Source: Parachlamydiales bacterium (GTDB lineage Bacteria > Chlamydiota > Chlamydiia > Chlamydiales > Rhabdochlamydiaceae). From it: 64,000 nucleotides of DNA. The stretch lies in the NCBI GenBank assembly GCA_963705295.1, contig OY970065.1, positions 832,001 through 896,000 of the forward strand, read 5' to 3'. The notes beneath the pieces are model-generated. The model saw only the letters and a list, made by a program, of their open reading frames with translations. It searched no databases and was not told where the DNA came from. Each line of letters opens with the position of its first letter. Position 1 is the stretch's first letter. Both the position numbers and the translations under genes were made by a program. Shown one piece after another: positions 7,811 to 37,385 of this stretch.

Positions 7811-7997
7811 TTATTAACCCGAGAGGTCAAAAGGTGACAATCTGCTTGCTGCACTCCTGCCCGATCGATCCTCCTCCTCGGCCTAGCCTCACGCCCAAGC
7901 CTCTAAATGGGGTCCTCGTCGGTCGGACCGCTAACGCTTCGATCTGACAGGAGTTCGCTGGCGCATGTTGTCACCTTTTGACCTCTCGGGTTAATAA
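7811..7997. repeat. Palindromic element family B, copy 1 (MITE/RPE-like)
   Basis: 30-bp perfect terminal inverted repeat TTATTAACCCGAGAGGTCAAAAGGTGACAA; core shared with the copies at 33549 and 37213. Confidence 0.93.
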
Positions 7998-8022
7998 TTC
8001 ACCAATAAAATCACAGGAGTTC

Positions 8023-8069
8023 ACCACAGAGGGGGAAGAGGTAGGAGGAGAGGAATTTTCTCTGTGGTT
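8023..8069. repeat. 24-bp direct repeat, copy 2, closed by CTCTGTGGT (family A-like palindrome)
   Basis: ACCACAGAG...CTCTGTGGT followed by a T run; may also act as a terminator. Confidence 0.8.
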
Positions 8070-8078
8070 TTCTTTTTT

Positions 8079-9020
8079 TTATTTCTTCTCTTTATCGAGA
8101 TAGTAAGGCGCCCCGTTATCGGAGATGGCCTTCGGCAGTGTTGATACGACATCTTCTCGAACGGTATAGATTTTTATACCAGGATGCAGATAGTTATCCA
8201 TGTCGTAAGGGAGAAAGATATGGTAGGTTTTGATGAAATCGAGAATCTTCATCATACCCGATCTTCGAACAATCATTGAATAAGCCCCATAGCGAGCACT
8301 AATCCGTCTAAAACTCTTACTGATATTGGTCCGGAAACGGAAAATAAGTGGATCTTCAGGTTTAAAATTGGGCCTTGGAGAAAATGAGAAACAACCGACA
8401 TAGTTGCCCTGCTGATCCTTCGTATCTGGATCTGTGAACAGGATATCCCAGTTGTCTTTACCGACTAGTTGATCTAATTTTTCGATATATCTGGAGAGCT
8501 TATGGGGATTTTGAATGATTTTAATATCATCTTCCATCACCCAGATCGTTTCATATCCAGAATCCACCGCATCTTGCAAAATGGACAAGTGGCTTAAAAC
8601 AATCCCAATGGCCCCTCGAGACATGGCATGGCAAAAATACGTTTGGCCAAAGTTTTGTAGAAAGTGGGGTTCAATGTATTCGGTTGCTGCTCCTCCGTTT
8701 TCTGGAAGATAGCTGGTTGCTTTAATATTGCAATCCATGCCAGGCGTAAGTCTTACGCCGACATCGTTGATCGTGGCTAAGGACAGCTCCCACCCATTGA
8801 CAGCTGAGAATCGAAACGGATGAATTCCGTACGGTTCGAGTTCTTTTTTACAATGTTCAAATTTTTCGGGTCTTTGATCCAAGTTGATCACATAAATGAA
8901 ATCGATATTTTTCATCGAATGACAGGGTCCTTTCGAGGAAGGATCGATCTTTTTGAAATGGTCTTGAACTTCAGCTTGTAAGACAAGTGTTGCAAGGCAA
9001 AATAGAAAATATTTCAACAT
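8079..9020 (-). CDS. Glycosyltransferase family 25-like, with signal peptide
   Basis: IYVINLDQRPEK, RFSAVNG, GAIGIVLSH, MEDD motifs. Start at MLKYFLFCLATLVLQA (9020), directly after the upstream gene's stop. Confidence 0.85.
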   Translation of the reverse strand: MLKYFLFCLATLVLQAEVQDHFKKIDPSSKGPCHSMKNIDFIYVINLDQRPEKFEHCKKELEPYGIHPFRFSAVNGWELSLATINDVGVRLTPGMDCNIKATSYLPENGGAATEYIEPHFLQNFGQTYFCHAMSRGAIGIVLSHLSILQDAVDSGYETIWVMEDDIKIIQNPHKLSRYIEKLDQLVGKDNWDILFTDPDTKDQQGNYVGCFSFSPRPNFKPEDPLIFRFRTNISKSFRRISARYGAYSMIVRRSGMMKILDFIKTYHIFLPYDMDNYLHPGIKIYTVREDVVSTLPKAISDNGAPYYLDKEKK

Positions 9021-9021
9021 T

Positions 9022-33769: not shown

Positions 33770-34511
33770 ATGACTTATAGAATAGCTGTTCTTGGATATG
33801 GCAGCCTGCCCCAATCAATTAGAAAATTACGGTACGATGCTTGAGGTTTTTAAGCCTCAAGATGCAGATTCTTTTCCCCCAGAGAATAACCTTAATTCCA
33901 ATAGTCTTTTTGTACCTACTGATCTTGGATTACCGGTCCGTCTAGGAAGATTATCCAAAAAACAAAGACGTGATCGAAGAATTACAATGATTCTACACCC
34001 CGGTGCAAAAGAAGAGCCCGTATTTTACGCAATATCGAGGTTTACAGCTTTGCAACCTGCAATTGAGAATTTACAAAAAAGAGAAGGATGTCCTACGAGC
34101 CGGTATATCGGTTTCGTTGACCTAAAAACAAATCAATCAAAATCCCAAATCCAAGATGTTGCTACAAAAGTGAAAGAATGGGCTCAACGCAGAGGGTTTG
34201 ACGCCGTCATCTGGACCGATCTTCCTTCAAAAGGAGTTGTGTTTGGTGAGAATTCTAATGGAGAAGAGATTTTGCCACTTCTTGATCGAGACCCTACACT
34301 TCTAGAAAATACAAAAAGATACATCCGTAACCTTGCACAAGTTAGAACTCCTCTTATGGATAGAATTTTAAAAATGAACGAACCTCTACCGGTTTTACCC
34401 ACTTCAAAATTTTCTTTTTCTAGAATTCTGTCTGGTATAGCCATAGTGCTATCCGTATCGATCGTTTTCTTGGCAGCAAGAAAGTTTTTTAGACTTCTTC
34501 GGGGCGCATAA
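33770..34511 (+). pseudogene. Gamma-glutamylcyclotransferase-like protein with C-terminal TM anchor; frameshift at CCCC 33809-33812
   Basis: MTYRIAVLGYGSLP is in one frame; NQLENYG...REG...DAVIWTDLP continues in another. Removing one C joins them. Confidence 0.65.
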
Positions 34512-36033
34512 TAGGGAAGAAGAGGACATCGCGGATGGAGGGAGCGCCGGTTAGGAGCATGACGAGTCGGTCGATTCCGATGCCTAGGCCGCCGGTAGGG
34601 GGCATTCCTTGGCAGACCGCTTCGATAAATTCTTCGTCGAGGGGATGGGCTTCTTTGTCTCCTTGCTCTCGTTTGAGACCTTGATCAACAAGGAGTTTTC
34701 TTTGAAGCTCTGGATCATTGAGTTCTGTGTATGAATTGCACATCTCACTTCCAGCAATGAATGTTTCGAACCTCTCAACGAATCTCTCTTCTCGTAGCTT
34801 GGGATCTCGATGGAGTTTGCAAAGGGGTGTCGTTTCGATCGGATGATCGATGATATGGTGAGGCTGGATGAGGTGGGCTTCTGCAGTTTCTTCGAACAGT
34901 TTTGCAATGAGAAGGCCACGGGTCGCTGTTTTAACCGATTCTTTATCGGCCACTTTATCGCGGAGTTGCTGATCGGATAGACCATCGACATCGATTTTGC
35001 CATAGACACGGATCGCTTCTTTCATGCTCATCCGCTTCCAAGGTGCTTTAAGATCGATTGTATTTTCACCAACTTGTATCTCGGTTTTTCCAAAAAGTTC
35101 TAACGCGAGATATTCGAAGAGGTTTTCAGTGAAGACCATCATGTCGTTGTAATCCCAGTAGGCGGCATACGCCTCGAGCATGGTGAATTCTGGATTGTGG
35201 GTTCGATCGATTCCTTCATTCCGGAAAACTTTCGATATTTCAAAAATCCGATCCATTCCTCCAACGATCAATTTCTTGAGCGCGATCTCGATCGCAATTC
35301 TCAAATACATCGTTTGGTGTAGAGCCAAAAGTTCGGTGACAAAAGGTCTTGCTTCAGCACCCCCATAGATATTTTGTAGAATGGGTGTTTCAACTTCGAT
35401 AAATCCGGTTTTGTGGCAATAATCTCGAATTAGGCGAATAACGCGGCTTCTTGTTCGGAATGTTTCCCGCACTTCAGGATGAATGATCAGATCGAGCCAC
35501 CGTTTTCGGTATCGGATCCCTTTATCGGTCAGACCGCTGTGTTTATCGGGAAGAGGAAGCAATGTCTTACACAGCACCGTCACTTTTTTTACATAAACTG
35601 TGACTTCGCCTTTCTGCGTTCTAAAGATATTTCCTTCGACTCCAATAATATCTCCCAGATCGAGCTTCTTTTCGATGAACTTCAGAGGAGTCACTTCAGT
35701 CGAGTTTAGCCCAGTCACCTGGGTATGATCCCGGTTAAACATGAGCTGAATGCGGCCGCCCGAATCTTGCAAATGGGCAAATGCATTTTTCCCCATCGCA
35801 CGGAACAGAACCAACCGACCTGCCAACACAACATGCTCAGTTTTGCCAGCCTCAGCCTCTTCAAACCCTCCCAACTCTCGAGACTCGTATTTATGCAAAA
35901 GACTGTGAGCTTCCCCAGTCGGAACAAATTTGGCTGGATACGGATCGATCCCCAAAGCTCTAATCTCTGCCAGCTTTGCCGACCGATTCTTGAATTCTTC
36001 GTGGCTATGGTACTCGGGTAATTGCATCGGCAT
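34489..36033 (-). CDS. lysS: Lysine-tRNA ligase (class II)
   Basis: [35 protein letters not shown]. Confidence 0.98.
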
Positions 36034-36090
36034 ATTCTAAGGGAAATTTACAAATAAGTCGAGAATCTCAATATCCAAATATTGAATTGG

Positions 36091-37188
36091 TTAGAAATAA
36101 ACCCTGGGGATGCGGTCATTGAGTTGGCAGAGGATTTCGTAGGGGATGGTATCACTCCAGGAGGCGACTTCTTGGAGGGTGATTTCTTGGGAGCCTTGTT
36201 TTCCGATGAGGACGACTTCGTCGTCGACGTAGACTTCAGCAGAGCCGACATCGACCATAAACTGGTCCATACAGACGGTTCCGCGAATGGGGAATTTCTG
36301 TCCGCGGATCAGAACAAAACCTTTATTGGAGAGGGAGCGGCGGTAGCCGTCACCGTAACCGACGGGAATGGTTACGATCCGGGTTTGGTGGGGGGTGATA
36401 TACGAATGACCGTAACTAATTCCTTCTCCTTCATCGACAACTTTGAAGTAAGAAATTTTTGCTTTCAGAGAAAAACACGGTGTTATTTCCTGCCAGGGAG
36501 AGGACGGTTTGGAGAGATAACCGAGGGTGACGAGGGATGGCCTGACCATGTCGAAATACGATGTCGGATAATGGAGTGTCCCACCCGAATTTGCGAGGTG
36601 TTTTAAGAGGGGTGCATCGAGCTGGGAGACGAACTGCTCGAAGGCTTCGATCTGTTGCAGAGCAAAAGGATGATCGGGGGTATCGGCTGTAGCCAAGTGA
36701 GAATAGATGCCGACGATTTCCAACCCTTCGAGCCCTCTCAAATAGGGAAAAATAGCCAGGGCTGTCGAGCACCGCATGCCGGTCCGGCGCATCCCCGTAT
36801 CAACTTCAAGGTGGACACGGCAGGTTCGTCCCATCTGTTTGCATTTTTTTGCCACGAGTTCAGCCTTGAATTTGGAGCTGATCGTGAATTCAAGTTGGAA
36901 TTGGATTAAGTCTTCGATCTGATCTTCATGGATGGCACCGAGGACAAGAATGGGCCGTGTGATGCCGGCTTCTCGTAATTTGATTCCTTCTTTCAAATGA
37001 GCCACAGCCAGATAATCAACCCCCGCCTCCTCGGCAGCCTTCCCCACAGGACATAGTCCATGTCCATAAGCATTGGCCTTGATCGGAAAACAAAACAAAC
37101 TTGTCCCAATATTCTTCCGTATGATCCCGATATTTTTTTTCAATTGTCCAAGATCAACTTCAATCCAGGCAGGATGAGGATAACCCAT
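36091..37188 (-). CDS. alr: Alanine racemase
   Basis: KANAYGHG (PLP lysine), DTGM, SYG, GYGDG, CMD. Confidence 0.96.
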   Translation of the reverse strand: MGYPHPAWIEVDLGQLKKNIGIIRKNIGTSLFCFPIKANAYGHGLCPVGKAAEEAGVDYLAVAHLKEGIKLREAGITRPILVLGAIHEDQIEDLIQFQLEFTISSKFKAELVAKKCKQMGRTCRVHLEVDTGMRRTGMRCSTALAIFPYLRGLEGLEIVGIYSHLATADTPDHPFALQQIEAFEQFVSQLDAPLLKHLANSGGTLHYPTSYFDMVRPSLVTLGYLSKPSSPWQEITPCFSLKAKISYFKVVDEGEGISYGHSYITPHQTRIVTIPVGYGDGYRRSLSNKGFVLIRGQKFPIRGTVCMDQFMVDVGSAEVYVDDEVVLIGKQGSQEITLQEVASWSDTIPYEILCQLNDRIPRVYF

Positions 37189-37212
37189 ATTCCTCAGATT
37201 AAGTCATTGGCT

Positions 37213-37385
37213 TATTAACCCTCCATGCAAAAAAGAGACAATCTGCTGGCTGCACCCCTGACAGATCGATCCTCCTCCTCGGCCTAGCCTAGCGGCTATG
37301 ATCCTCGTCGGTCGGACCGCTGACGCTTCGATCTCACAGGGGTTCGCTTGCGCATCTTGTCTCTTTTTTGCGTGTCGGGTTAATA
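37213..37385. repeat. Palindromic element family B, copy 4 (overlaps the ankyrin gene 3' end)
   Basis: TATTAACCC...GGGTTAATA ends with the family B core. Confidence 0.93.

Follow-up and report, generated by a model that had tools for sequence, protein, structure and literature searches.

What are the four long palindromes that lie in a 64,000-nucleotide stretch of a Parachlamydiales genome (Rhabdochlamydiaceae; contig OY970065.1, positions 832,001 to 896,000), and how could such elements spread? The whole stretch is called the window here, and positions are counted from its first letter. The original prediction, made from the letters of the window, took the palindromes (family B) for a nonautonomous element or recombination site that is recognized as folded single-stranded DNA or RNA. 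Our analysis shows that family B is a nonautonomous MITE (a miniature transposable element with inverted repeats) of the IS630 type, similar to RUP (repeat unit of pneumococcus) and neither an attC nor a REP (repetitive extragenic palindromic) site, since its ends match those of IS630 insertion sequences (ISs) with their polarity kept and its insertion sites fit a TA duplication. We consider it highly probable (roughly 0.85) that a trans-acting IS630 DDE transposase moves the element, recognizing its two ends in double-stranded form, cutting it out, and placing it at TA. The four copies, with their covariance model scores, and the parts of one of them are as follows.

7814-7994 (181 bp), minus strand: MITE copy B1, 148.8 bits
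31936-32095 (160 bp), minus strand: MITE copy B2, 147.1 bits
33550-33730 (181 bp), minus strand: MITE copy B3, 143.9 bits
37215-37383 (169 bp), minus strand: MITE copy B4, 158.6 bits
33550-33576, plus strand: example terminal inverted repeat of B3, found with a 29-nt end pattern
33704-33730, minus strand: opposite terminal inverted repeat of B3, found with the same pattern
33577-33703, minus strand: structured interior of B3, with imperfect stems and purine-rich loops on the minus strand, unlike IS630 interiors

The copies lie where they had been predicted, with starts off by 1 to 3 nt, and contain the complementary arm sequences that had been quoted for them. A window scan with a covariance model, a check that had been proposed at the outset, returned these four only; no fifth copy was found in the window, the next match being an unrelated palindrome at 37.7 bits versus 144 to 159 for the copies. 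All eight ends share one layout: TA, the outer block TTAACCC, a variable 8-nt spacer, and the inner block AAWARG-N-KACAA. By analogy with ISs in general, the outer block would be the cleavage side and the inner block the transposase-binding side. The 29-nt end pattern (≤2 mismatches) matched all eight ends and nothing else in the 64 kb, and it had no match in 100 shuffles. TA stands outside seven of the eight ends; B1 has it at 7812-7813 and 7995-7996, next to a 27-bp terminal repeat with fully complementary outer arms, while B3 has TA on the left and TG on the right. B3 and B4 are 95% identical. B2 is 63 to 71% identical to the other window copies (65% to B3), and its interior represents a distinct subfamily, with 94% interior identity to a copy at another locus (L053). 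At the gathering level, no Rfam family matched in the window apart from three tRNAs; at the E-value level, matches around B2 to B4 were at chance level, the best over B2 scoring 28.7 bits versus a threshold of 150. Searches with blastn of plasmids and phages with B3, and of plasmids with two other copies, gave nothing or chance pieces of 21 to 45 nt.

To place these copies among relatives, GTDB genomes were scanned once with the end pattern, which gave at least 89 stretches representing at least 86 loci, so that distribution and copy numbers are lower bounds. Of the 86 loci, 51 were judged to contain a full element, 17 to be partial or end only, 8 to have IS630 ends (L055 by eye), 9 to be probable chance matches, and 1 to be a duplicate. 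Statistics were calculated on 60 full elements, including second copies and the window's four, and the alignment used 41. Full elements occur in at least 51 loci of at least 26 genomes besides the window's. Among the 26 carriers listed, 16 are labeled chlamydial (one of them Acheromyda, which we take to belong there), 5 Verrucomicrobia, and 5 uncultured bacterium; several of this last group look chlamydial by gene content. Elements are 160 to 240 bp long (160 to 181 bp in the window). Shortened copies of 58 to 89 bp are among the matches listed (L009 10003-10079, L017 9939-10027, L046 9939-10027, and L028 3030-3087), and those in L017 and L046 look like deletions between two GGCAAAGCC direct repeats.

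The scan also returned a candidate partner. Locus L036 carries, at 8910-10027, a complete 1,118-bp IS630 element with a 345-amino-acid open reading frame (ORF) and TA on both sides. Its transposase scores 209 bits against NF033545 (IS630; cutoff, 100) and contains PF13358, and all 10 aligned sequences share the residues of its DDE triad (D177, D255, and E292). Of 29 nt, MITE ends share a median of 23 and at most 27 with the ends of this IS; the window copies share 21 to 25, and each end of B3 shares 24 to 25. The agreement extends to polarity. In every one of the 51 full-length copies, the interior of family B has one purine-rich strand (mean, 0.62), and 81 to 82% of the bases left unpaired on it are purines. 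In 8 of 11 distinct asymmetric end pairs, this strand is like the right end of the IS at its 5′ end and like the left end at its 3′ end; 3 pairs tie, and none shows the opposite (P = 0.008). A second complete IS630 with TTAACCC ends is present in L039, a Desulfobacula locus. The elements themselves encode no ORF and end as complete IS630s do, which bears out their description as nonautonomous. None of the 60 interiors had a blastn match (E value of 0.01) in the two complete ISs, and an origin of family B by internal deletion of the IS was rejected.

Further members of the transposase clade were found. At L068, the contig breaks off inside the 5′ end of a close relative (85% over 20 amino acids); the LepA encoded on this contig and that of a Parachlamydiales locus are 89.5% identical. 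Another 37 clusters were listed at 67 to 85% identity, many on contigs of approximately 1.1 to 1.3 kb, which suggests that the elements are multicopy, are merged during assembly, and then drop out of bins. Loci L039, L003, L075, and L083 share one IS630 5′ end, which occurs both in a Desulfobacula bin and on a 1,121-bp contig of a Gastranaerophilales bin, suggesting misbinning or transfer. In L036, the region 4705-10027 is a cluster of mobile elements, with pieces of a group II intron reverse transcriptase, an IS982 transposase above the cutoff, and the IS630 abutting an IS66 transposase remnant.

If an IS630 transposase inserts family B, TA should flank the elements. TA was present on both sides of 48 of 57 elements and, where the scan pattern was matched at both ends of an element, at the second end of 44 of 51. 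Flanks are A-rich at position 3 and random beyond, and longer target duplications are absent (3 bp in 1 of 57 elements). Two empty-site comparisons are both compatible with a 2-bp TA duplication. In the first, the copy in L025 interrupts a repeat of a second structured family, and two uninterrupted copies of that repeat in L071 lack just the length of the element and 2 bp more. This second family has TA-TACC ends and different terminal repeats (L071 13055-13220 and 1043-1208; L025 ~9862-10190). In the second comparison, the copy at L067 3665-3846 forms a 60-codon in-frame insert that is missing in 14 of 14 aligned homologues; only 180 bp plus a single TA preserves the reading frame. The host gene of this insert (L067 2748-4187) is a conserved chlamydial MORN-repeat gene, and 5 of its 14 homologues have unrelated N-terminal extensions of approximately 40 to 70 amino acids. 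ORFs also span a B copy at L024 905-1720 and L045 2-469 and are possibly further in-frame fusions.

Family B lies at unrelated sites in many genomes, and its positions differ between genomes. Element pairs at least 95% identical make up 16 of 46 pairs within genomes versus 3 of 1,229 between genomes. Parts of the window have syntenic counterparts in L025 and L037, where other accessory content occupies the intervals that contain the copies in the window. A third palindromic family, with GAACCTATCC ends, is inserted inside B copies (L066 ~710-868 and L076 near 135).

The original prediction placed its weight on folding, and the covariation that it described was reproduced. In the alignment, 21 of 38 pairs change on both sides, a value reached by 0 of 500 shuffles, which ignore relatedness, and slid controls were far lower. 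The covariation is mostly in the 8-nt end spacer, whose arms show 1.2 differences within an element versus 3.9 to 4.1 between elements, and which occurs in 14 distinct fully symmetric types. Matched spacers were also found in 6 of 8 autonomous IS630 relatives (0 to 2 differences). Folding was likewise strong, with B3 reaching z = −9.1 on the minus strand and −8.9 on the plus strand compared with shuffles. The minus strand was the more stable in four of four window copies, with RNA and DNA parameters alike. Of 10 symmetric 2-by-2 loops on that strand, 4 are GA/GA and 2 AG/AG, the energy model itself favoring tandem GA; family-wide, 24 of 43 are GA/GA or AG/AG, counts that are not independent because the copies share ancestry. 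Strand-specific stability with tandem GA, as had been proposed, is thus present in the window copies, while recognition of a folded strand is not required.

The proposed mechanism is as follows. Binding, cutting, and cut-and-paste chemistry would be those of the IS630/Tc1/mariner superfamily. At each end, the transposase would bind double-stranded DNA at the conserved inner block, cut at the outer TTAACCC, and insert the element into TA by cut and paste. The 8-nt spacer would drift freely, and the arms would be kept alike by arm-to-arm copying through template switching, which would produce covariation with no need for a folded substrate. Passages of reports on yeast (PMC8604942) and E. coli (PMC7202029) describe a neutral route of arm homogenization, in which the template is switched between imperfect inverted repeats. 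Copies would then persist at sites where the damage is small, outside core operons and in many cases at the 3′ ends of genes. At such 3′ ends, a B end would supply a stop in each of the three frames no more than 26 nt in. In 23 of 60 cases, an ORF with 100 or more codons extends into the element, mostly stopping 6, 22, or 26 nt in, with one stop per frame; insertions at gene 3′ ends may thus be nearly harmless. Such a conventional IS630 partner accounts for both the ends and the insertion sites of family B.

Several observations weigh against this explanation. For the first empty site, the comparators come from another genome, are approximately 81% identical, and have CC in place of TA; the second falls in a length-variable loop; and no empty site was found among the fetched loci for any of the four window copies. 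No cognate enzyme is visible in the window, as had been noted at the outset, and tblastn with the IS630 transposase found none within the 64 kb; no fetched locus has a complete IS and a MITE together. The host of the L036 element is probably chlamydial, as four of the first five organism-named homologues of a neighboring gene are, yet a nonchlamydial one is equally close (59%). Compensatory changes continue past the terminal repeat into interior helices. The spacer pairs of the two complete ISs, in L036 and L039, differ at 4 of 8 and 6 of 8 positions while 27 of 60 MITEs are fully symmetric, so that arm matching is stronger in the MITEs. Finally, stability favors the purine-rich strand, with RNA parameters in 44 of 60 elements and with DNA parameters in 50 of 60, for which a double-stranded DDE pathway has no need. 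The strand asymmetry is real, and it is without explanation in the IS630 model, which does not cover the pattern of purine loops on one strand of the interior.

This asymmetry could reflect a constraint on single strands that adds to IS630 mobility rather than replacing it: the folded purine-rich strand, as single-stranded DNA or RNA, would be recognized by a factor of the host or of a mobile element or would aid amplification, and structured cores would be exchanged between MITE families that differ in their ends. The consistent purine-rich strand of the 51 copies, the purine loops (24 of 43), and the covariation are in its favor. Identity at the ends and identity in the interior are nearly uncorrelated between genomes (rho, 0.07), and a 49-column inner module is common to family B and the second family in L071 (score of 37 versus a maximum of 30 to 31 in 100 shuffles). 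The second family, the third nested family, and an ERIC (enterobacterial repetitive intergenic consensus) copy at aceF-lpd of E. coli all fold better on their purine-rich strands; the asymmetry is therefore not special to family B. On the other side, the purine-rich strand has no orientation bias relative to transcripts (18:14, P = 0.60) or GC skew (24:16, P = 0.27). Its mismatches in the outer 21 bp are near even, with 27 G-T versus 20 A-C. Shared ancestry makes the loop counts dependent, the shuffle control is blind to relatedness, and no Rfam family reaches the gathering level. The asymmetry could also stem from direct repeats of short quasipalindromes (GGCAAAGCC twice) that are kept as double-stranded sites. 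We regard an added single-strand constraint as unlikely.

A more specific version would make family B one of several chlamydial MITE families built from interchangeable parts: IS-derived ends, here of IS630 with a left/right polarity that is fixed with respect to the core, and a shared, structured non-IS core under selection for folding on one particular strand. This strand, when folded, would act as an intermediate, the arms would be rewritten together, cores would swap ends, and the element would be retuned to the resident transposase. We hold this version to be unlikely; if true, it would give a mechanism for the strand-asymmetric hairpins of TA-flanked bacterial MITEs such as ERIC.

The original prediction had instead favored attC- or REP-like logic, possibly driving cassette traffic. 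The model examined was an attC- or REP/REPIN-like site that a tyrosine recombinase or HUH enzyme would recognize as folded single-stranded DNA. Family B does form a long imperfect hairpin with AAC...GTT near its ends and strand-specific stability, and one accessory gene is flanked by B2 and B3. attC sites have the consensus boxes RYYYAAC and GTTRRRY, an unpaired central spacer, and extrahelical bases near the ends, and they belong to arrays in which one-gene cassettes point the same way and an integron integrase is present. RYYYAAC fits 0 of 120 ends of family B, its outer arms pair almost fully in register, and it has no central spacer or fixed extrahelical bases. REP and REPIN sequences that depend on REP-associated tyrosine transposases (RAYTs) carry the tag GTAG or CGTC at an end, according to passages of PMC3733652; such a tag occurs near an end in 1 of 60 elements. 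No Y1/HUH transposase or integron integrase was found among 229 proteins (60 from the window, 90 flanking, and 79 control) out of approximately 1,000 ORFs in the loci. Moreover, lysS and alr lie between B3 and B4, B2 and B3 belong to different subfamilies, and IS630 already accounts for the ends. An attC- or REP-like site is therefore very improbable, and this part of the original prediction did not hold.

Gene neighborhoods bear on the same question. By hand classification, which is subjective, housekeeping genes make up 16 of 90 neighbors versus 29 of 79 controls (P = 0.008), a modest trend that could be counted for cassette traffic but that is explained by the loss of insertions in core operons, since the control includes operon-internal genes. 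Genes without a Pfam match are no more common (41 of 90 neighbors versus 34 of 79 controls; P = 0.76), and B2 to B4 lie approximately 30 to 760 bp from cysS, lysS, or alr. The claim that copies border accessory genes is thus upheld for the rarity of housekeeping neighbors and not for an excess of Pfam-less ones. Neighbor orientation at 51 elements is mixed (32 co-oriented, 13 convergent, and 6 divergent), which also argues against cassettes. The shared orientation of the four window copies, correctly noted at the outset, has a chance of 1 in 8 and has no counterpart family-wide. DUF4143 genes lie within 400 nt of an element in four of nine cases versus a background of 17% (P = 0.05), a figure biased by the choice of seeds among adjacent genes; it could be counted for cassette traffic, and comobilization with DUF4143 genes was rejected as a candidate because the association is weak and biased. 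The 22-nt overlap shared by three DUF4143 genes follows from the use of one of three possible reading frames. The element-adjoining DUF4143 genes are only 25 to 33% identical to the window's copy and have no common end position, a sign of independent insertions.

Could pairs of IS630-type MITEs nevertheless act at times as a composite transposon that carries the gene between them? Any two IS630-type ends might in principle be used together, and one L071 pair of the same subfamily and orientation, 1.8 kb apart, flanks a single Pfam-less gene of 472 amino acids. This is the only one of eight neighboring pairs with the same subfamily around one gene, and one of its copies has decayed ends. None of the fetched loci presented an empty site from which the gene and the two elements were absent, and the independent insertions indicated by the DUF4143 genes speak against joint transfer as well. 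Composite movement is accordingly quite improbable, and gene-cassette traffic, as proposed at the outset, gains no demonstrated composite or cassette structure from these loci.

The reading of ORFs into the element in 23 of 60 cases, together with the orientation-dependent effect of ERIC on mRNA stability described in passages of a review (PMC2229807), might instead suggest a host-domesticated regulatory RNA or terminator that is not mobile. Positions that differ between genomes, empty sites, TA flanks, within-genome bursts, nested insertions, and the lack of orientation bias fit mobility, and domestication is hardly credible for the family. Effects on single transcripts are possible as by-products of a mobile element.

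IS630-type MITEs are as a kind already known and ordinary. The closest described system is RUP, which passages of PMC2229807 and PMC3049150 present as short and noncoding, with TA at both ends, a long stem-loop, and ends like those of an IS630-family element (IS630-Spn1) proposed to move it in trans. Family B is also short, noncoding, TA-flanked, and hairpin-forming, with IS630-like ends. Compared by description only, RUP differs in being 107 bp long, having a 9-bp contiguous terminal repeat, and occurring in Streptococcus pneumoniae, whereas family B has lengths of 160 to 240 bp, 27-bp bipartite ends, many spacer variants, modular interiors, and a distribution over at least 26 genomes besides the window's.

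Passages of the same review (PMC2229807) describe ERIC/IRU and Correia/NEMIS as TA-flanked structured MITEs with in-frame gene fusions, and Rickettsia palindromic elements (RPEs) as palindromic repeats of an intracellular bacterium that lie in frame inside conserved genes. Family B resembles all of these in size, folding, and gene fusion, and its 60-codon in-frame insert recalls RPEs in particular. It differs from RPEs, compared by description only, in its regular TA flanks and IS630 ends. It differs from ERIC and Correia in having a matching IS; the passages of this 2007 review name one for RUP only and present bacterial MITE mobilization as then without experimental support. Kinship with ERIC, suggested by a resemblance, was rejected: the best covariance score in two E. 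coli loci was 9.1 bits, with none over the whole ERIC copy, and local alignment with one E. coli copy scored 21, which 73 of 100 shuffles matched. The aceF-lpd copy has −66.3 kcal/mol on its purine-rich strand versus −52.0 kcal/mol on the other, and the pdhR-aceE region of E. coli contained no ERIC copy. A Cardinium MITE, derived from IS982 according to passages of PMC9769881, differs from family B in IS family and in being confined to one strain.

Within the IS630 family, the L036 partner is typical in having a single ORF of approximately 345 amino acids with helix-turn-helix and DDE_3 domains, a length of approximately 1.1 kb, and TA flanks, whereas family B has no ORF and an interior that is not from the IS; the partner belongs to an unnamed subclade. 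Plasmid relatives of the L036 IS mostly have related TTAAYCC-like ends. IS1471, the nearest named element seen, was rejected as the parent, as it has approximately 40% identity to the L036 transposase and different ends.

We found no description of family B or of any Chlamydiota MITE family in a literature search that left most subscription journals outside it. Excerpts of two chlamydial genome papers on IS expansion mention no chlamydial MITE (PMC9723776 and PMC13229535), and excerpts of PMC9208149 and PMC3733652 contain nothing on family B. Family B is apparently an undescribed chlamydial MITE family. The original prediction had set its reading apart from a match to a known IS-derived MITE; the family is of that kind, with IS630 ends and TA, and no prior description of it was found.

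Elements of this family alter gene ends in Chlamydiota, being read by ORFs in 23 of 60 cases and adding 60 amino acids in frame in one of them. The partner in hand has an ORF without interruption, a DDE triad that is conserved, and ends that are nearly identical and agree in polarity, which makes trans mobilization directly testable. Natural variation separates ends from interior, and family B is therefore convenient for asking why strand-asymmetric hairpins persist.

In the window itself, B1 sits among glycan-modifying genes, within a stack of other palindromes. B2 comes after cysS and a 78-amino-acid ORF, at the end of a DUF4143 AAA+ gene (32076-33401) whose stop codon comes from B2. B3 lies between the DUF4143 gene and an unannotated ORF preceding lysS. 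B4 lies between an ankyrin ORF (37334-39373), which runs approximately 50 nt into it, and alr, whose start codon is 26 bp downstream of B4. An ORF that had been called GGCT-like had no match in Pfam or NCBIfam. At 33772-34511, an N terminus with a GYGSL motif, which we take to be GGCT/ChaC-like, is out of frame with the following 239-amino-acid ORF, with an apparent frameshift near 33810. The window also encodes a MurC-Ddl fusion, and its priA-ftsY-sucCD-M50-ABC run is syntenic with the Rhabdochlamydiaceae locus L025 at 50 to 82% identity; by these genes, the host would be an environmental chlamydia.

An integrative element unrelated to family B occupies 54238-63045 at tRNA-Tyr, with 77-bp direct repeats (54238-54314 and 62969-63045), a tyrosine integrase (54581-55693), and a cargo comprising a primase-like gene, DUF927, and an addiction-module pair. 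This integrase was ruled out as the cognate enzyme of family B because it has its own 77-bp att repeats at tRNA-Tyr; it scores 69.8 bits against the integron-integrase model (cutoff, 265). Other repeats include a near-perfect hairpin with 60-bp arms at 7676-7810, directly adjoining B1 and without sequence kinship to family B; ACCACAGAG-type palindromic repeats at 7617 and 8023 (region 7617-8070); and ACCACCGAG-type hairpins at approximately 1460 and 49300 (1449-1555 and 49290-49429). The interval between rsmI and murF is variable: in the window, 2561-9948 is a glycan-gene island that contains B1 and lies beside tRNA-Cys, and in L037 the interval (966-5909) holds different genes, including a DUF4143 AAA+ gene.

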